From Acidilobaceae archaeon (GTDB lineage: Archaea > Thermoproteota > Thermoprotei_A > Sulfolobales > Acidilobaceae): a stretch of 64,000 bases of DNA. The notes beneath the pieces were generated by a model that was not told the DNA's origin, made no database searches, and saw only the letters and a program-made list of their open reading frames with translations. A program made the translations under genes and the position numbers. The DNA is taken from assembly GCA_038824665.1 (NCBI GenBank), contig JAWBBK010000001.1:288001-352000 (forward strand). The letters are read 5' to 3'. Positions 11,693 through 37,393 of this stretch are shown piece by piece (positions within the stretch are counted from its first letter, which is position 1; each line of letters begins with the position of its first letter).

Positions 11693-12679
11693 ACGAAGAG
11701 AGCAAAGCTAGGAAAGAGCAACGTTAGCGTTAGCTCGATAGGTCTTGGCTTATGGCAAGCTGGCTCTAGGCTTTGGTCTTCTCAGCTCTCTTCTAAAGAC
11801 CTAGCGGAGGCTTTAGAGATAGCTCGAAGCTTTGGGATAGACCTTTTGGACACAGCTGAACTCTATGGATGGGGTAGATCTGAGGCTCTGTTAGGACAAG
11901 CGCTCAGCATAGTAGGCAGAGAAGGCTTCTTCGTAGCGAGCAAGGTGGCAGGCTTCAGAACGAGCTCTGATGAGGTGGTCAAGGCTGTAGCGGCTATCGA
12001 TAGAAGGCTGGGGTTTTCAGTGGATTTGATACAGCTTCACTGGCCTCCTCCTTTCTGGATAGACCTTTGTAGACCTATAAGAGGGCTTGAGAAAGCGGTA
12101 TCGGAAGGTCTAGCTCACTATTACGGACTTTCTAACTTTGATGTAGACCTAATTGAAAAAGCTTTAGAGTGTAGCAAAAGGTTAGAGCCAGTAAGCGATC
12201 AGGTTCAGTACAGTCTGGCCTTCAGGACTCCTGAGCTTAAGTTAAAACCTTTTCTCGATTCGAGAGGTCTCACTCTGATAGCTTGGAGCCCTTTGGCTAA
12301 AGGAGCTTTGGCTGGAGCTAGACCCACTAGTCTGGCTCAAAGGTTTGACAGAGTCTTCTTCGAGGCCTCTAAGGATTGGGAGTTACAGAAAGCTTTAGAA
12401 ACAGTTTCGGCTAAGCTGAAAGCAAGCAAGGCTCAGATAGCTCTCGCATGGCTCGTGACTAAAAAAGCAATTCCTATACCTGGTTTTAGGAATCCGAAAA
12501 GAGTCGAAGAAATAGCGAGAGCTGGAACTCTAGAACTTCCCGAATGGGCTATAAGAGAGTTAGATGAAGCTTCTCAAAAGTACTTGAATAAATGGGGGTC
12601 TGCTGTCTGGTCTTCTCGCATGAGGCTCGTTCCAGCCTTATTACAAAAGGTTGCGCTTCGAGTCTTGGGAGGAGTTTAA
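11693..12679 (+). CDS. Aldo/keto reductase (apparent ACG start)
   Basis: DTAELYG.G.SE, VASK, QLHWP, GLSNF, QVQYSL, AWSPLAKG. The conserved N-terminus KRAKLGKSNVSVSSIGLGLWQ lies upstream of the track start and is bounded by an in-frame TAG. Confidence 0.9.
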   Translation, partial: TKRAKLGKSNVSVSSIGLGLWQAGSRLWSSQLSSKDLAEALEIARSFGIDLLDTAELYGWGRSEALLGQALSIVGREGFFVASKVAGFRTSSDEVVKAVAAIDRRLGFSVDLIQLHWPPPFWIDLCRPIRGLEKAVSEGLAHYYGLSNFDVDLIEKALECSKRLEPVSDQVQYSLAFRTPELKLKPFLDSRGLTLIAWSPLAKGALAGARPTSLAQRFDRVFFEASKDWELQKALETVSAKLKASKAQIALAWLVTKKAIPIPGFRNPKRVEEIARAGTLELPEWAIRELDEASQKYLNKWGSAVWSSRMRLVPALLQKVALRVLGGV

Positions 12680-29517: not shown

Positions 29518-30888
29518 TTGGAGGATCTAAAATTCTCTTGTGTTTTCGAGTGGAGATATGGCTCTCAAGATATGAGAGAACTCTTTACGTCGGAATCCAT
29601 GATCAAACGGTTCTTACAAGTAGAAGTGGCTCTCTTAGCTGGGCTTGAAGAAGCTGGACTCGCTGATCGAGGTTGTTCAGAGAACATAGCTAAGTGTGTT
29701 GAATCCATCACGGCTAAAGAGGTCTACGAACTCGAAACCGTAACGGGACACGATATAGCGTCGCTAGCTCAAATAGCTGGAGAAAGATGTGGTCCTTGTG
29801 GGAGGTTCTTTCACTTAGGAGCTACAAGTTACGATATTGTAGATACAGCCTGGACCTTAATCTTTAGAGATGCTCTAAGTATAGTCAAAAAGAGGCTGAT
29901 AGAGATCATTGATGTTCTCTCAGATCTAGCTTTAAGAGAAGCAGACACAATTATGGTTGGGAGAACTCACGGTCAACATGCTCTTCCGATAACTCTTGGG
30001 TTCAAACTCGCTAATTACGTCTACGAGCTTTCGAGAAGTCTAGAAAGGATAGCGGATGTTGAAAAAAGAGTGATTAAGTGCAAGATCTCAGGAGCTGTAG
30101 GCACTATGGCAGCGTGGAGAGATAAGGGTTTAGTTGTCGAAAAGACGACTTGTTCGAAGCTAGGTCTAGAGCCTCACACTATATCAACTCAAGTCGCGCC
30201 TCGCGATGGTTTTGCTGAACTCGTCTCAGCTTTAGCTATTTTGGCTAGTCAGCTCGACAGATTCGCGCTCGAAATTAGAGAGCTGTCAAGAACAGAGATC
30301 GGAGAACTCGCAGAAGGAGGAGAAAGAGTCGGTAGTAGCACTATGCCTCAGAAGAGAAATCCTGTAACGGCTGAGAGAGTCTCAGGGTTAGCTAAGATAG
30401 CTAGGTCTCTCTCTATAGCTGCTTTTGAGAACATACCTCTTATGCACGAGAGAGATCTAACGAACAGCAGTAGCGAGAGAGTTCTCTTACCTCATCTGTT
30501 TCTTATCATAGACCAAATGCTGTTAGACACGAAGAAGTTGCTCAAAACATTGGTAATAGACAGAGAGGCTATGGCTAAAAACCTAGAACTCACCAAGGGA
30601 GCAATTATGGCAGAGTCTGTAATGATGAAGCTTGTCGAGAAAGGAGTTCCGAGACATAAAGCTCACGCTATGGTGATGGAGGTCGTAAGAAAAAAGAAAG
30701 CTGATGAAAGCTTTGCCGAAGCCTTGTCTAAAGACTCTAGAATCTCGTCTCTGCTAACACACGAAGAGATAAGAGAAGCTTTAGATTATAGGTCCTACTT
30801 AGGGTCTTACAAACAGCTCATATTTAGAGCTCTAGAATACGCAAAGAAGGTAAAGGAGTCTAGTGTCGCTAGACCTTCAGAGTCCTGA
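29518..30888 (+). CDS. purB: Adenylosuccinate lyase
   Basis: [30 protein letters not shown]. Confidence 0.96.
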
Positions 30889-31204
30889 AGAAACAAGATC
30901 TGTTTCCGGTATGACAAGCAGGACCGCTGGCTTCTACTAAGTAGAGAAGAGAGTCTCCATCACAGTCTACTCGTATTTCAACCACTTTCATTACGTTTCC
31001 TGAAGTTTCTCCTTTCATCCACAGTCTGTTTCTACTTCTGCTCCAAAAATGCGCTAGTCCTGTAGCCATAGTTTTCTCGAGACTTTCGCGATTGGCATAG
31101 GCTAGCATTAAGACCTCTTTTGTTTTTACGTCTTGTACTATTACCGGTACTAGACCTCCTGTTTTGTTGAAGTCTATGAGTTCTATTGCGTTCTCTAAGC
31201 TCAC
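30869..31204 (-). CDS. hisI: Phosphoribosyl-AMP cyclohydrolase
   Basis: [28 protein letters not shown]; no fused HisE domain. Confidence 0.95.
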
Positions 31205-31956
31205 TAAAGCCTCACCGGAATCCCGTGCTCTTTTAGATAGGCTTTTACTTCCTTTATCGTATAGACTCTGTAGTGGAAGATCGATGCTGCCAAAACGGCT
31301 GAAGCTCCAGCTCTCACAGCTTCAAGCATATCTAAAGGCGATCCTGCTCCTCCGCTAGCTACAACAGGAACGTCTACAGCTCTGCTCACGCTGGCTATGA
31401 GTTCTACATCATAGCCTGACCTAGTCCCATCGGTATCTATAGAGGTCAATAAGATCTCGCCAGCTCCTAAAGAGGCTCCTCTCACAGCCCACTCGACAGC
31501 GTCTAAAGTCGTTTCTGTTCTACCTCCTTCAATGAAGACTTTGTAACCTCTCTCAGTCCTTCTAGCGTCTATCGCAAGCACTACAGAGCTTGAGCCAAGT
31601 TCTCTCGCTAGTTCTTTTAAGAGTTCTGGGTTTCTAACAGCGGCAGTGTTTACTGCGATTTTCGAAGCGCCGGCTCTGAAAACCTCTAGAGCGTCTCTTA
31701 AGCTTTTGATCCCTCCGCCTGCAGTTATAGGAACTGATACCTCTGCTGAGATCTTAGAGACTAGCTCTTTCAGATAACTTCTCCCTTCTACGCTCGCTCC
31801 TATATCTAGCACAGCTATTTCGTCTGCTCCTTCTTTCTCGTAGATTTTCGCATATTCTACAGGGTTTCCTATGTTCGTGAGATCTACGAACTTAACTCCT
31901 TTAACCAAAACTCCTCTATAGGTGTCAAGACAAGGTATGACTCTTACGTACTTCAC
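31204..31956 (-). CDS. hisF: Imidazole glycerol phosphate synthase cyclase subunit
   Basis: [39 protein letters not shown]. Confidence 0.96.
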
Positions 31957-32672
31957 GACCCTCCCACCTCCAAGAGTTCCTCTAAGGTAACTGTCCCTTC
32001 ATAAAAAGCTCTTCCAACAACAACGCCACGAAAGCCTTCACGAGCTAATAACCTCACATCATTAATCGAGCTAATCCCTCCAGCATAGATTATTGAGCCT
32101 CTATACTCTTGAGGGATCAAAACCAGAGTCTTTGCGTTAGGTCCTGAGAGCTTACCGTCTCTCTCCACGTCAGTTAACAAGAACAACCGAAAGCCGAGGT
32201 TCGAGTAGAAGTTAAGACCTTCAGTGACACTAAGAGATAGAGACTCTTTCCAACCGCTTATTGCAAGCCTTCCAGATCTCACGTCGAGAGCCAAGACCGC
32301 TCTGTCCCCTCCTGCAGATATCACTTCTTCTACTTTCATCATTCTCTTATGTACTCCTGTTCCTACAACAACTCTATCCGCTACGTCTAGAGCTTTCTTG
32401 AAGTCTTCGAAAGACCTGATCCCTCCAGCTATTGTAACGAAAGCTCCACAGGACTTCAGCTCTTTAGCCAGCTTGAGCGCGTTCTCACTGATCTTTCCAG
32501 TTTCGATAGTCGCTTCTAGGTCTACCAGATGTATTCTCTTAAGCCCTGAGTCCAATAACTTCAAGCCCATAGAGAGCGGGTCGTTAGAATAGACAATAAC
32601 GTTCTCAGGTTTTCCTTCTATCATTCTCACCACCTTGTTTTTATATACGTCTAAAGCTACATGCACCTCCAT
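31953..32672 (-). CDS. hisA: ProFAR isomerase
   Basis: HLVDL, GGIR, TDVERDG, YAGGI, VGRAFYEG. Confidence 0.92.
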   Translation of the reverse strand: MEVHVALDVYKNKVVRMIEGKPENVIVYSNDPLSMGLKLLDSGLKRIHLVDLEATIETGKISENALKLAKELKSCGAFVTIAGGIRSFEDFKKALDVADRVVVGTGVHKRMMKVEEVISAGGDRAVLALDVRSGRLAISGWKESLSLSVTEGLNFYSNLGFRLFLLTDVERDGKLSGPNAKTLVLIPQEYRGSIIYAGGISSINDVRLLAREGFRGVVVGRAFYEGTVTLEELLEVGGS

Positions 32673-33253
32673 CAGACTTCACCTTTAGTGCTCGGCACGA
32701 CTTCGCTCACTATACGCGAAGCCGACTTAAGGCTTAGACCTAAAGCTTTGAATGAAGCCTCCGCTACGTGATGTACGTCTTTTCCTCTTAGTTTCGCAAC
32801 GTGTAACGTAAATCTGCCCCAAAGAGCTATGCTTTTAAGCAAGTGTTCTATGAGTCCTCCATCAATCCCGTCTATCGAAGAGCCTCTGAGACCTAAACTT
32901 ATCGAAACGTAAGGTCTTCTTACCAAATCTAAAGACGCTAAGACCAAAGCTTCATCCATAGGGACAATGGCATGAGCGAATCTAGCTATCCCTATTCTGT
33001 TTCCTAAAGCTTTATCTAGAGCTTCACCTAAGGCTATTCCCAGGTCTTCTATTACGTGATGTTGTATATCTCCTGACGCTTCTACTTTAAGACCTAAGCT
33101 TCCGTGATGAGCCATAGCTTCTAATAGATGAGTCAACATAGGGTAAGGAGAAACTATGTTGTATCCTGGCTCGTCTAGATTCAACTCGACCACGATGTTC
33201 ACCTCTCTGGTTTTTCTCAAGACTCTGGCTTTACGAGGCTCTGAGTACATCAT
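32672..33253 (-). CDS. hisB: Imidazoleglycerol-phosphate dehydratase
   Basis: HHVIED, PMDEAL, HHVAEA.FKA. Confidence 0.95.
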   Translation of the reverse strand: MMYSEPRKARVLRKTREVNIVVELNLDEPGYNIVSPYPMLTHLLEAMAHHGSLGLKVEASGDIQHHVIEDLGIALGEALDKALGNRIGIARFAHAIVPMDEALVLASLDLVRRPYVSISLGLRGSSIDGIDGGLIEHLLKSIALWGRFTLHVAKLRGKDVHHVAEASFKALGLSLKSASRIVSEVVPSTKGEV

Positions 33254-34316
33254 AAAACACCTCCTTCACGAAACTCAGCAGACGTCTTGGAGGTACTGAG
33301 ACCCTCACGTAAGAATCGCCTTCTCTAAACAGGTTTTCGTAGACACGAACGCAGACGCCTCTTTTCCTTAGCTCTCGAGAGAGGGTTGAAGCTCGTATTT
33401 TTGTCTTAGCGAAGACGAAGTTGGTCTGTGTGTCGTAGACCTCGAGGTCGTTGAGTTCTCTGAGTTCTGACGCTAGAACGTGTCTTAGCTCTCTAGCTTC
33501 AGCAATATATTTCTCGAATTCGTGTATGTTCGAAAGAGCTAGTAGTCCAGCTCTCAAAGCTATAGAGTTTACCTGATAAGGAGTCCTCAGAACTCTCAAG
33601 AACTCAGCTATTTCTGAACGAGCTACAATATATCCTAGTCTCAGACCAGCTAGACCAAAAGCCTTAGAGAAAGTTCCAATAACTACAGTGTTTTCGTAGC
33701 TTCCAGCTAAGCTTTTAGCTCCTTCAGTAAACAGAAGATAGGTCTCATCGACTACGAACAGACCTCGCGAGGATTCGGCGACAGACTTCAAGATCTCAAG
33801 GTCTAGCAAATTGCCTGTTGGATTGTTCGGGTTACAGAAGAATACGATATCGGCTTTCGAGGACTTCTCGAGAGCGAGCTCTTTATCCACTCTAAAGTCG
33901 TTTTCGTTCATTTTGATGATATCGACTTCACATCCTTTAGCTTTGCTGAGCAGACTATACATGGGATAGCTAGGCTTGAGAGTCGCTACTAGAGGACGTG
34001 ACTCTTTAGAAAACAGTCTTACAGCATCTAGAAGCAGAGCTATAGCGTCGTCTGCTCCGTTCGTTATAACGACCATCTCAGGATCTACGGAGTATCTCTC
34101 AGCTATTTTTTCCATCAGCTCATTCTCAAGTTCAGGTAGAGGGTAAAGTCTGGCATCAGTTTCCATAGCGGCTTTAAAGACTATCTGGTCAACGAGGTCT
34201 CTAGGCACCAGTAGGTTTTCGTTTTTATCTAAAACTACGAGACAACCTTCTGTTTGAGCTTTATCGTATCTTAGTTCCTCTAAGAGCTGAGGGCTCAGCT
34301 TCTCTAAGATCTTCAG
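33231..34316 (-). CDS. hisC: Histidinol-phosphate aminotransferase (probable CTG start overlapping the hisD stop)
   Basis: LDKNEN (upstream of the track start), NGADD, NPNNPTG, DETY, TFSKAFGLAGLRLG; CTGA overlap at 34313-34316. Confidence 0.92.
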   Translation of the reverse strand: MKILEKLSPQLLEELRYDKAQTEGCLVVLDKNENLLVPRDLVDQIVFKAAMETDARLYPLPELENELMEKIAERYSVDPEMVVITNGADDAIALLLDAVRLFSKESRPLVATLKPSYPMYSLLSKAKGCEVDIIKMNENDFRVDKELALEKSSKADIVFFCNPNNPTGNLLDLEILKSVAESSRGLFVVDETYLLFTEGAKSLAGSYENTVVIGTFSKAFGLAGLRLGYIVARSEIAEFLRVLRTPYQVNSIALRAGLLALSNIHEFEKYIAEARELRHVLASELRELNDLEVYDTQTNFVFAKTKIRASTLSRELRKRGVCVRVYENLFREGDSYVRVSVPPRRLLSFVKEVFYDVLRAS

Positions 34317-35602
34317 TTCAACTCACCTACTATAGAGGACAAATGTAACTCAAATCCCTCTTCTTTCGCTAAAGGCTCTACTGCTTGAGCTATTCTCTTC
34401 AAAGCCCCACCGTTATCTAGAACTTTCACGCGTCTTCTGAGAGCCAAGAAGTCAAGTGCTGAAAGTCCTCCTCTCCATCGAGCCCATCCTGAAGTAGGCA
34501 GTATGTGGTTAGCTCCAGAGTAATAATCATTGATAGCTGTTGAAACACAACCTTCCACAAGGACTCCGTAGTTTTCAAACGCGTCTGCGAGTTCTAAGGA
34601 GTCACTGCAGACCTCGAGATGTTCTGGAGCTATGAGGTTTATCAGCTCAAAGGCTAGCTCTTTGTTTTTAGCGATAGCTAATTTAGGAGTGCTCAGCTTC
34701 TTTCCACTTGATCTTCTTAAAAACTCTTTATATGCGTCAGCAACCTTCTGGGCTATCTCCGCATCTGTAGTTATAAGAGCTACAGCTGAAGACTCTCCAT
34801 GCTCAGCTTGTGCTAAGAGGTGAAGAGCGATCTCGCGTTCAACACCTTTTTTGTCAACATAGACTACCAGCTCTGTTGGTCCTGCCAGCAAGTCTATACC
34901 TACATCGCGAGAGACCAAGATCTTAGCGGCTGTGTAATAAGGTCCTCCAGGTCCAGCTATCTTGGATACCTTTTCTACGCTTTCAGTCCCATAAGCTAAA
35001 GCGGCTACTCCATAAGCTCCTCCTAAAGCGTAAAGTCCATCAAAACCCGCTACCGCTAGAGAAGCCAGCAGACTTTTCCTTATGGATGCAGGAGGAGCAA
35101 ACGCTACTAGCTTCTTGACTCCAGCAGCCCTAGCAGCTACACCACACATGATGGCAGTCGATATGTATGGAGCAACAGCTCCAGGCACATAGCAGGCAAC
35201 GCTGTCTATCGGCTTAAGCTCTTCTATCACTATTACAGAACTATCTACAGCTATAGTCCAACGAGATCTTGAAAGAGCGGAAAGCGGTTCTTCTACTGCT
35301 TTGGCGCGCTCAGCTAGACCTTCAAGAGCTTCTAGAAGTCGTTTGTTTTCAGATCTTAAGGACTCACGAGCTTTTTCAAGCTTCTCTTTGCTTATATAGA
35401 TGTTTTCTCTGTCTAGTTCTACTTTATCCAGCTTTTTAGCATAGTCTATCAGAGCTTTGTCTCCTCGTTTTTTCACGTCGTAGACTATAGGCTTGACTAT
35501 CTCTATATATTTATCTATGTTCAGCTCTGAGCGAAAGAGTTTGACAAAAGCTTCTACGTCCTCTTTAGACGAGACTCTAAGTAGCTCCACGGGAGCTTTC
35601 AC
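34313..35602 (-). CDS. hisD: Histidinol dehydrogenase
   Basis: YVPG, GPG, AGPTE, AQAEH, APEHL, GANHILPT. Confidence 0.95.
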   Translation of the reverse strand: MKAPVELLRVSSKEDVEAFVKLFRSELNIDKYIEIVKPIVYDVKKRGDKALIDYAKKLDKVELDRENIYISKEKLEKARESLRSENKRLLEALEGLAERAKAVEEPLSALSRSRWTIAVDSSVIVIEELKPIDSVACYVPGAVAPYISTAIMCGVAARAAGVKKLVAFAPPASIRKSLLASLAVAGFDGLYALGGAYGVAALAYGTESVEKVSKIAGPGGPYYTAAKILVSRDVGIDLLAGPTELVVYVDKKGVEREIALHLLAQAEHGESSAVALITTDAEIAQKVADAYKEFLRRSSGKKLSTPKLAIAKNKELAFELINLIAPEHLEVCSDSLELADAFENYGVLVEGCVSTAINDYYSGANHILPTSGWARWRGGLSALDFLALRRRVKVLDNGGALKRIAQAVEPLAKEEGFELHLSSIVGELN

Positions 35603-36572
35603 CTAGTTCTTCTAGAGGGATCACGAGTTTAGGCTCATAGACTACAAGGCCTTGCGCTAAAGCTCTCAACAAAGGCATGAGCTTGATGAGGTCTTCCTTT
35701 CCTATCACAGTGTTTATTGCAACCCATTCCGGATCGGCTAGAGGGCTTATAGTTGGACTCTTTAAAGCAGGCAATGCTTTAAGCAACTTCTCTAAGTTAT
35801 CTTTCTTCACGTTCAGGAATACGTGATACTTCCCTTTAGCGTCTACAGCTCCCTTCATTATCGCTAAGAGGTCTAATATTCTCTCTCTTTTCTCTTTGTT
35901 TTTGAGACTCTCCTTATTAGCTATGAGCACAGCTTGAGACTCCATTACGACATCTATTATCTTTAAACCGTTGCTCTCTAGAGTAGTTCCTGTCTCAGAG
36001 ACGTCAATTATTGCGTCAGCTTCATCAGGAGGCTTAGCTTCAGTAGCGCCGAAAGATAAAATCACGCGAACCATATTGTTATCTCCCCATTTGCCCCAAG
36101 GGGTTACAATAAGAGGTCTCAAGGACCCATAGTATTTCTTATAGCTTTCTCTACTGGCTAGAAAGGTTGAAGAGACCACGAGATACTCTGACGATACTCT
36201 TAGAACTCTATTAGAACTTGCAAACTCTTCTATCAGTTCTTCAGCGTTCTCTATCTTCCACTCTTTAGGTATAGCTACGACCAGCTTAACTCTGCCTATA
36301 CCGAGTTCGAGGAGCTTCTCCACTTCGTTTTGAAGTCCGTGTTCGACGACCCAATCGATTCCAGTAATGCCTAAATCGTAAGATCCTTCGTAAACGTAAA
36401 GAGGTATCTCTTGAGGTCTTAAGATCTTAATGCAGATATCAGGATTACCTGCTAGAACCGGCTTATAGCTTCTCTCTCGACCTAGCAGTTGTAGCCCAGC
36501 TCTATCGAAGAACTCAAAGACAGACTTTTCAAGAGAGCCTTTCGGGATAGCAAGCTTAATACGACATGCAAT
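35577..36572 (-). CDS. hisG: ATP phosphoribosyltransferase, long form (no in-frame ATG/GTG/TTG at the true N-terminus; ATT candidate)
   Basis: The frame stays open 83 codons upstream of the track start and encodes KLAIPKGSL, LRPQEIP, DLGITGID; later GATEAK, D..ETGTTL, PTISPL. Confidence 0.92.
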   Translation of the reverse strand: MACRIKLAIPKGSLEKSVFEFFDRAGLQLLGRERSYKPVLAGNPDICIKILRPQEIPLYVYEGSYDLGITGIDWVVEHGLQNEVEKLLELGIGRVKLVVAIPKEWKIENAEELIEEFASSNRVLRVSSEYLVVSSTFLASRESYKKYYGSLRPLIVTPWGKWGDNNMVRVILSFGATEAKPPDEADAIIDVSETGTTLESNGLKIIDVVMESQAVLIANKESLKNKEKRERILDLLAIMKGAVDAKGKYHVFLNVKKDNLEKLLKALPALKSPTISPLADPEWVAINTVIGKEDLIKLMPLLRALAQGLVVYEPKLVIPLEELGESSRGAT

Positions 36573-36735
36573 AACTGATCACCTCCACACTTAGAGAGGA
36601 GAACGGCCCTCTAACGACCGAAGTCCTCTCAGAACTCTCGCTAGATTTTATTCCGAGAACTGGGTTGAGATCTGTCTTAGTGAATACACATCATCTCAAC
36701 CGACCCACTCTAAACCCTCTCGAAGCTTATATATC
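36573..36735 (-). promoter_or_regulatory. his operon promoter and structured 5' leader with uORFs
   Basis: TATATAAG at ~36726-36733, three inverted repeats, uORFs MGRLR* and MMCIH*, SD GGAGGTGA at 36579-36586. Confidence 0.6.
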
Positions 36736-36745
36736 TTTCTCTTGA

Positions 36746-37393
36746 TTAGCTCTTAACGATACTCAAAACTTCTAATACCTTCAATAGCTCGTCGTACTTC
36801 ATCTGTCCTGGAGCGGTAGGCTCATCTACGTACGAGTATATTAGTTTAGAGCCTAGAAGACCGAAAGCTAGTCTTTCCCAGGGGCTAGACCCTATCGGCA
36901 TAACGGCTACGTTGTCATAACCTAAGTCTAAAACCTGAGAGAGCAGACTCTTATAACCTGGCGCAGTTACAACAGCTATCTTCACACAAAAAGCGGAGCT
37001 AGCATATCTCTCGACTGTGCTCAAAACCTCTCTTGCGGTTGGAACTCTGTCTAGATAATGAGCTGACACTATTTTCTCTTCATAAACTACGTTGTGAGAT
37101 TTGAGGAACGATACCTCTACATCGTACATGATCCCCAAGTCATGAAGTCTGTTGAGATATGCAGTCTTTACTTCTGGGCTTAGAGGGTTTACTCCTCCTT
37201 CAGCTACATCTCTTAAAGTCGCTATGATCGGTCTCTTTACAAGCGCTAGAACTTCTGGAGGAATGCTTTCTAGATCCTTCATATAGTCAAGTCTCAGCTC
37301 TACGTAGTCAGGTCCTTTAACGCTTTCTACCTTCACTACGTCTGCGTAAGATCTGACAGGCTTAGAAGCTACGACCAAAGGTCTTCTACTCAA
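36746..37393 (-). CDS. aroD: 3-dehydroquinate dehydratase type I
   Basis: VELRLD, TLR...EGG, SAH, VKIA, TAPGQ. Confidence 0.9.
   Translation of the reverse strand: MSRRPLVVASKPVRSYADVVKVESVKGPDYVELRLDYMKDLESIPPEVLALVKRPIIATLRDVAEGGVNPLSPEVKTAYLNRLHDLGIMYDVEVSFLKSHNVVYEEKIVSAHYLDRVPTAREVLSTVERYASSAFCVKIAVVTAPGYKSLLSQVLDLGYDNVAVMPIGSSPWERLAFGLLGSKLIYSYVDEPTAPGQMKYDELLKVLEVLSIVKS

Follow-up and report, generated by a model that had tools for sequence, protein, structure and literature searches.

The window analysed here is a 64,000-nucleotide (nt) stretch from a hot-spring crenarchaeon of the Acidilobaceae (positions 288,001-352,000 of contig JAWBBK010000001.1, assembly GCA_038824665.1), and coordinates are given as window positions. 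On its minus strand it carries a histidine operon headed by hisG, the gene for a long-form ATP phosphoribosyltransferase, which lacks a canonical start (ATG, GTG or TTG) at the beginning of its reading frame. The reading favoured here, to which we assign a probability of about 80%, is that hisG is translated from an AUU codon at 36572-36570, a weak start behind a long Shine-Dalgarno (SD) sequence and one case of a habit found across the genome. This habit would consist of placing CUG, ACG, AUU, AUA or AUC exactly 7 nt after the GGTG core of the SD, a position called SD+7 below (7 nt from the end of GGTG to the start codon). AUU is favoured because a canonical start is absent, because of the SD spacing, because the codon is homologous to the starts of relatives, because it is conserved, and because near-cognate codons are enriched at SD+7.

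Read on the minus strand, the start region runs GGAGGTGATC, AGTT, ATT, GCA, TGT, CGT, ATT, AAG, CTT, GCT, ATC, CCG. The HisG frame is closed upstream by a TGA at 36581-36579, two codons before ATT, and after this stop it reads S-V-I-A-C-R-I-K-L-A-I-P-K-G-S-L. The first in-frame canonical codon is a GTG at 36323, which is codon 84 and lies within the Pfam HisG domain (PF01634, E=3.4e-41, residues 52-237), followed by the HisG_C regulatory domain (PF08029, E=5.1e-18, residues 245-313). Counted from GGTG, ATT stands at 7 nt, an out-of-frame TTG at 8 nt and an out-of-frame ATG at 12 nt. The original prediction, made from the sequence of the window, had described the SD, the AUU opening HisG without a canonical in-frame start and the out-of-frame UUG with CAU (His) as its second codon, and all of this anatomy was found as described. 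The UUG opens a short dead-end open reading frame (ORF), which in relatives is 28-39 amino acids (aa) long. That description did not include the ATG at 36567, from which M-S-Y-stop is read in the third frame. Coordinates of all features are collected in Table 1.

The hisG clade comprised 11 sequences in five lineages: the window, the same-genus genome G001, five species-level genomes (L023, L024, L025, L027, and L028) and four metagenome contigs (L085-L088), with L027 and the four contigs referred to as the L027 group. HisG identity to the window was 78% in G001 and 68-70% in the five species-level genomes. The sequence ATTGCATG was identical in 11 of 11, which answers in the affirmative the question of conservation raised by the original prediction, and all members read TT-ATT-GCA-TG(C/T) behind an SD-like G-rich run. 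This identity is more than chance, since 4-fold sites compared pairwise between the five lineages share only 0.30-0.46 and are thus saturated. ATTGCATG is also the longest invariant run of the hisG coding sequence, with 8 nt against 6 nt for the next, and it extends to TTATTGCATG. Invariant third bases occurred at only 3 of the 88 shared 4-fold codon columns, codon 2 (GCA) being one of them. In the +1 frame its A makes a CAU and in the +2 frame an AUG, and both resulting arrangements, UUG-CAU and an AUG followed by two codons and TAA or TAG, were present in every clade sequence. The third base of codon 5, (G/A)TT, is likewise invariant and gives the T of the UAA or UAG that ends the AUG mini-ORF. 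Judged from this alignment, the hisG start site is under selection at the nucleotide level.

ATT is the positional homologue of the start codon of relatives because of its spacing, its position relative to a protein anchor and the constraint on frame 0. Every clade member with a GGTG core has ATT at 7 nt by manual reading, and G001 has GGCG in register. In SD-led relatives of 50-55% identity, GGTG is followed after 7 nt by ATG or TTG at the corresponding point. A canonical start was located at most 10 codons upstream of the A-I-P-K-G anchor in 77 of 82 non-query loci and was ATG in 60 of these 77; the ATG lies mostly 6 codons upstream of the anchor, and the ATT of the clade 7 codons upstream. 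Frame 0 looks translated from codon 3 onwards, where Cys is written TGT or TGC, a change that is synonymous in frame 0 only, and codon 5 encodes Val or Ile as it does in relatives. Two more distant HisG loci, at about 53-55% identity, also had no canonical start. In L092 (~1501-1510) a CTG occupies GGTG+7 where the nearest relatives have TTG, with an ATT one codon upstream, and in L136 (~1490-1500) the only candidate is an ATT soon after the upstream stop.

The same comparisons bear on the possibility that the missing start reflects an assembly error, or that hisG is a decaying pseudogene, for which the missing canonical start is the sole support. Contigs of three runs from two studies (X1, X2, and X3; P1 and P2), X2 being represented by two overlapping contigs, span 36300-36800 with zero indels and differ from the window in this interval solely at 36384, 36447, and 36606; one of the three runs may itself be the source of the assembly. 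For ATTGCAT, whose support by reads the original prediction had wished to see, these contigs agree with the window. Its null explanation, a G missing from TTG GCA, is refuted by these indel-free contigs, by the occurrence of TTGGCA in none of the relatives and by the identical start in 11 of 11 clade sequences. A pseudogene would also have to be reconciled with HisG proteins that are 68-78% identical among lineages despite saturated synonymous sites, with two intact HisG domains and with an intact operon, and the chance that either explanation is correct is vanishingly small.

Spacing was assessed across the whole 1.1-Mb genome of the organism (G000), using the 5'-most possible start codons of ORFs of at least 150 codons (n=1002). 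The anti-SD sequence was assumed from general knowledge, as the 3' end of 16S rRNA was absent from this metagenome-assembled genome (MAG), and the sole match to the motif stood outside an rRNA context. Canonical starts peaked at 7 nt after GGTG with 85 cases; the counts for 6, 8, and 12 nt were 18, 35, and 1, respectively, and a looser spacing count agreed with the 7-nt peak. By codon, TTG starts numbered 20 at 7 nt and 13 at 8 nt, and ATG starts 40 at 7 nt and 0 at 12 nt. The non-canonical codons at SD+7 were enriched in near-cognates, which accounted for 18 of 46 (ATA 5, CTG 5, ACG 3, ATT 2, AAG 2, and ATC 1). Control offsets in the same phase, at 1, 4, 10, and 13 nt after GGTG, had near-cognates as 10 of 129, 12 of 125, 5 of 31, and 5 of 31 codons, respectively (Fisher P = 3e-6). 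Among the 98 SD+7 starts scored for SD length, 85 of them in canonical-start genes, the hisG SD was the longest in register, and the best canonical-start gene reached a contiguous run of 8. The mean contiguous SD run was 6.38 for near-cognate genes and 5.47 for canonical ones (one-sided Mann-Whitney P = 0.04).

Thirteen genes carried CTG, ACG, ATT, ATA or ATC at SD+7 and had no canonical start for at least 12 codons. In 8 of these 13, hisG included, the first canonical start falls after the beginning of the Pfam domain; the remaining Pfam checks, among them those of the ATA-start candidates and of one ACG candidate, gave no information on the N-terminus. The gene for RNase P p30, with ACG or ATA, also has no canonical start before its Pfam domain, and its near-cognate codon is not at SD+7. 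Compared with G001, the near-cognate starts differed in 4 of 7 genes. In the window organism and in G001, respectively, the aldo/keto reductase gene has ACG and CTG, the ABC ATPase gene CTG and TTG, and the flavin reductase gene ACG and GTG, while the DUF354 gene (CTG) and leuS (ATT) have the same codon in both. A further gene of G001, with 501 codons (L223, G001:C1:374926-374941 onward), has an ATT that follows GGGTGA at 7 nt; a stop precedes this ATT by two codons, and a twin-arginine (Tat)-type S-R-R-D-F signal comes directly after it.

Two general causes of relaxed start selection were considered and rejected. An unusual initiator tRNA does not account for it, as the genome encodes a single, ordinary A1:U72 initiator with anticodon CAU; there is also one tRNA-His, with anticodon GUG. 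Loss of aIF1 was discarded because the search for SUI1 was positive for G000, for G001 and for 24 of the 25 genomes covered.

Under AUU initiation, the helix formed by the 10-nt SD would bring AUU into the P site of the small ribosomal subunit, where it would be read as Met by the ordinary initiator tRNA, as known near-cognate initiation leads one to expect. Such a start would be deliberately weak and HisG output low. The overlapping UUG at 8 nt and AUG at 12 nt probably divert some ribosomes to short dead-end products, which would lower HisG further. In the experiments on S. aureus described in PMC13009471, AUU and AUA starts behind extended SDs yield about 10% of the expression of AUG, and a similar fraction, around one tenth, is given for the weak starts of E. 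coli infC and pcnB (PMC13009471 and PMC4705826).

Several points weigh against AUU initiation. S. solfataricus aIF1 is described as discriminating against AUU in vitro (PMC4705826), and aIF1 is present in the window genome and in G001. The out-of-frame UUG is a stronger codon at near-optimal spacing, and much initiation may occur in the wrong frame. Plain AUU initiation leaves unexplained why the third bases of codons 2 and 5 are invariant and why ATT never became ATG in five lineages. Among the seven sequences checked first, the window, L023, L024, L025, and L028 have no canonical in-frame start from the upstream stop to codon 75-124, and G001 has an in-frame TTG at codon 4 of hisG. In the L027 group an in-frame ATG lies 9 codons upstream of ATT, ahead of the SD. 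These codons may serve as the start in their lineages, and of the two features of relatives that the original prediction had named as speaking against it, TTGGCA did not turn up and another in-frame canonical start did so in G001 and the L027 group. The upstream ATG of the L027 group, ~27 nt upstream of ATT, follows an ATATAA box at a distance of 24 nt, an arrangement typical of leaderless transcripts, and in this group HisG translation may have a second starting route, a canonical one. One of its members, L087, has an additional TTG abutting the SD.

The invariant third base of codon 2 is where the original prediction's own mechanism enters. It proposed that initiation takes place on the UUG at 36571 with CAU in the A site and that, when His-tRNA is scarce, the initiator tRNA slips by -1 to AUU; Ala-tRNA would then commit the ribosome to the HisG frame, and HisG would rise under histidine starvation. 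The conservation of UUG-CAU in all 11 sequences and five lineages fits this proposal, as do the A of GCA that makes CAU, one of the three invariant 4-fold third bases, and the position of ATTGCATG as the longest invariant coding run. A start at 8 nt from GGTG, where the UUG stands, can be used, the replacement of ATT by ATG, a change that would destroy UUG, never occurred, and slippage in the P site at hungry codons is a known mechanism according to the part of a review that treats it (PMC8211752). The constraint on codon 2 is, however, not specific to His, because the invariant A also forms the conserved out-of-frame AUG, and it is the stop of the AUG mini-ORF, not the toggle, that explains why the T of codon 5 is invariant. 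The proposed toggle thus accounts for the first invariant site and not for the second, whereas the AUG mini-ORF accounts for both. Twelve other genes use near-cognate SD+7 starts without such an arrangement, most of them without a link to histidine, and the toggle is not needed where AUU stands at the modal SD spacing, at which relatives have ATG or TTG. The anticodon CAU pairs at two of three bases with either AUU or UUG, and the site has no slippery repeat. We know of no report that an initiator tRNA slips once the subunits have joined, which counts further against the toggle, and we regard it as very unlikely. An apparent parallel in leuS, where ATT GTT gives UUG-UUG (Met-Leu), was put down to chance; it is weakened because the oxidoreductase-like Tat-signal gene of G001, with ATT GCT GTA, likewise gives UUG-CUG-UAA.

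As the AUG mini-ORF covers both invariant sites, a second mechanism has to be weighed in which translation starts at the AUG at 36567, proceeds for two codons and shifts by +1 at UAA or UAG in the manner of prfB or antizyme, giving M-x-x-K-L-A-I-P-K-G. AUG-x-x-stop is found in 11 of 11 sequences, with both of the synonymous sites that it requires (third bases of codons 2 and 5) invariant, and the product would have an N-terminus of the usual length that resembles the M-x-x-V-K-F-A-I-P-K-G of relatives. The spacing of the AUG is the first objection, as the genome-wide scan found no ATG among the 5'-most starts at 12 nt against 40 at 7 nt. Frame 0 is constrained as coding sequence before the shift site (Cys as TGT or TGC, Val or Ile at codon 5), the P-site codons CGU, UAU, GGU, and UGU are unable to re-pair in the +1 frame, and no stimulator was found near the shift site. 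In its treatment of archaea, PMC8211752 documents a single programmed frameshift. A +1 shift at hisG is therefore considered highly improbable.

AUG and UUG could also act as decoys in a regulated start cluster, in which the share of each codon would be set by initiation stringency (aIF1 level, temperature) and HisG output tuned in this way. Such a cluster would be an addition to AUU initiation and not an alternative to it. It would fit the nucleotide-level constraint on TTATTGCATG and on the stop of the mini-ORF, and two accounts from the literature are compatible with it. Archaeal pre-initiation complexes are described as scanning locally around the position set by the SD, with aIF1 controlling codon discrimination (PMC6237735), and the efficiency of AUA starts in S. 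aureus is described as varying with the growth medium (PMC13009471). The idea is inferential throughout, and such a cluster was absent from all other near-cognate genes that were examined; we hold regulated decoys to be unlikely.

Upstream of the start, a second conserved element was identified, a leader mini-ORF that lies 101-132 nt upstream of ATT in 10 of the 11 clade sequences, with a 1-nt variant in the remaining one, L087. Its consensus is (G)GATG(T/C)GTATTCAC, and its translations are M(M)-C-I-H-stop, M-C-I-H-T-stop and, for L087, M-R-I-H-stop. The form containing T results from an in-frame insertion of 3 nt. The element was located at ~2586-2603 in L002 and at 1400-1417 in L023. Its core GATGTGTATTCAC has a single match in the genome at up to 1 mismatch, and the element was not found upstream of HisG loci outside the clade, occurring solely with ATT-type hisG. 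On these two grounds, a role as the operator of a regulon was rejected.

The leader mini-ORF follows a TATA-like box, which we infer to be the promoter. The alignment shows TATAAGC in 10 of 11 clade sequences and TTTAAAC in G001, and the mini-ORF begins 31-36 nt after the box in the clade by manual count. In L023, L024, L025, L027, and L028 the box forms part of ATGCTTATAAGCAT, a perfect palindrome of 14 nt that lies about 40 nt before the mini-ORF, and the window has TATAAGC without the palindrome. The palindrome could be the site of a regulator overlapping the promoter. The leader element itself could be an operator at the transcription start or, in a short leader, a mini-ORF that senses His-tRNA.

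No conserved RNA structure linking the leader element to the SD was detected by RNAalifold on 8 sequences or by comparing the window fold with shuffles. The former gave -3.75 kcal/mol with helices of 3 and 5 base pairs (bp) and one compensatory pair, and the single-sequence fold of the window leader was no better than shuffled sequences (z = -0.96). Rfam covariance models, T-box included, had 0 matches in 36400-36800 at E up to 10. A pairing of AUGUG with UGCAU between the two conserved elements was examined by hand and rejected, as 5 bp with two G-U pairs would be too weak for a thermophile.

A more speculative and rather improbable proposal joins both elements into a two-part translational sensor that is carried with the operon between distant archaeal lineages. 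In its first part, the invariant three-frame start (AUU, UUG-CAU, and AUG-x-x-stop) would partition ribosomes according to His-tRNA supply or initiation stringency. In the second, the M-C-I-H-stop mini-ORF ~120 nt upstream would report the histidine supply through ribosome pausing. If this were true, Archaea would have their first described case of a translational device that senses an amino acid.

The operon has the order hisG-D-C-B-A-F-I, from 30869 to 36572 on one strand with hisG first. hisC, another of the near-cognate genes, opens with TGA GTT GAA CTG, the CTG being 7 nt from GGTG, and a conserved D-K-N-E-N-L-L-V-P segment lies upstream of its first canonical start, a GTG at 34208. At the place equivalent to this CTG, G001 has GTG.

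Table 1. Features of the hisG start region, its leader and operon, and near-cognate genes of the same genome (window positions unless a contig of G000 is given).
Feature	Position	Strand	Remarks
hisG, long-form ATP phosphoribosyltransferase	35577..36572	-	331 codons from ATT; stop at 35579-35577; Pfam domain precedes first canonical start
Proposed AUU initiation codon of hisG	36570..36572	-	GGTG+7; invariant in 11/11 clade sequences
Extended SD sequence GGAGGTGATC	36577..36586	-	10-nt run
+1-frame ORF, UUG start, CAU (His) as codon 2	36482..36571	-	29 aa
+2-frame mini-ORF ATG TCG TAT TAA (M-S-Y-stop)	36556..36567	-	overlaps hisG codons 2-6
Leader mini-ORF ATG ATG TGT ATT CAC TAA (M-M-C-I-H-stop)	36677..36694	-	conserved core GATGTGTATTCAC at 36692-36680
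TATA-like box ATATATAAGC	36725..36734	-	32 nt (first ATG) or 35 nt (second ATG) upstream of leader mini-ORF
hisD	34313..35602	-	GTG start overlapping hisG end; Pfam Histidinol_dh 1.4e-102
hisC	33231..34316	-	proposed CUG start 34316-34314, overlapping hisD stop (CTGA); Pfam domain precedes first canonical start
hisB, hisA, hisF, hisI	30869..33253	-	Pfam IGPD, His_biosynth (twice), PRA-CH
Aldo/keto reductase	11693-12676	+	ACG, 7 nt after GAGGTGA; domain from residue 16, first canonical start at codon 52
leuS	outside window		ATT; Pfam domain precedes first canonical start
ABC ATPase	outside window		CTG; Pfam domain precedes first canonical start
DUF354 protein	outside window		CTG; Pfam domain precedes first canonical start
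Flavin reductase	outside window		ACG; Pfam domain precedes first canonical start
Class II aldolase	outside window		CTG; Pfam domain precedes first canonical start
G000 sites outside window, leuS to RNase P p30	C1:47041(-), C1:193495(-), C1:179806(-), C2:46327(+), C3:34205(-), C6:13259(-)		L166-L170, L174

The history of the operon appears to differ from that of its host. Between the window organism and the genomes G041-G045, HisG is 68-70% identical and LeuRS only 41-42%. Those members of the window organism's family that share LeuRS at 61-71% are mostly without this HisG type, and the HisG search gave any match in 5 of 24 family genomes. Because of this discrepancy in identity and the scarcity of the HisG type within the family, a horizontal transfer of the operon, its leader and AUU start included, is probable. 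The leuS genes of G041-G045 have different N-termini and no ATT.

In its list of start codons, a review of archaeal initiation names AUG, GUG, and UUG only (PMC7531240), and neither a natural archaeal gene with an AUU start nor an AUU-start hisG was found in the literature searched, the scope of which excluded subscription journals. The retention of AUU on a core gene in five lineages, together with about a dozen near-cognates at SD+7 in a 1.1-Mb genome, suggests that codon discrimination in some Crenarchaeota can yield in vivo to strong SD pairing. There are also consequences for annotation. Gene callers limited to ATG, GTG, and TTG would cut HisG to 248 aa, drop the substrate-binding N-terminus of HisC and shorten LeuRS, the ABC ATPase, and other proteins. 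Truncated calls of this kind could make histidine biosynthesis seem incomplete in metabolic reconstructions of these MAGs.

Known systems resemble single parts of the hisG region to different degrees. Attenuation in the leaders of bacterial his operons shares with it a short ORF with a His codon, placed in the his leader just downstream of a promoter-like box. In contrast to the bacterial leaders, the ORF found here has a single His codon and no run of them, its host is archaeal, and it has neither a conserved terminator or antiterminator structure nor an Rfam match. For the proposed histidine toggle, the systems compared were one-tRNA, P-site -1 frameshifting at hungry codons and the programmed -1 frameshift of S. 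solfataricus fucA1, as covered in part by PMC8211752. The hungry-codon cases set out there involve elongator peptidyl-tRNAs on slippery heptamers, whereas the toggle would involve an initiator on a near-cognate codon without a heptamer. prfB (RF2) and antizyme resemble the AUG mini-ORF in having a conserved short ORF that ends at a stop where a +1 shift enters the main frame. The AUG of hisG differs from them in its poor spacing from the SD, in lacking P-site re-pairing and a nearby stimulator, and in the constraint on frame 0 before the stop.

The closest likeness is to the conserved AUU and AUA starts behind extended SDs that PMC13009471 and PMC4705826 describe, in the parts concerned, for S. 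aureus cvfC1, infC, ccpN, and citZ and for E. coli infC and pcnB; in S. aureus the start of cvfC1 is AUU and those of ccpN and citZ are AUA (PMC13009471). As described in these sources, the bacterial starts share with hisG the proper SD spacing, a very long SD and a weak codon kept across species, and they often belong to the first gene of an operon and lead gene callers to truncate the protein. The hisG start differs from them in that its host is a crenarchaeon with the eukaryote-type factors aIF1, aIF1A, and aIF2, and that its product is a biosynthetic enzyme and not a regulator or initiation factor. The habit in this genome moreover reaches CUG and ACG in about a dozen genes, and the hisG start is overlapped by a conserved UUG and AUG in the two other frames. 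The hisG start thus appears to be an archaeal version of the known weak near-cognate start behind an extended SD, accompanied here by a strongly conserved three-frame start site and, in the leader, by a conserved mini-ORF with a His codon.

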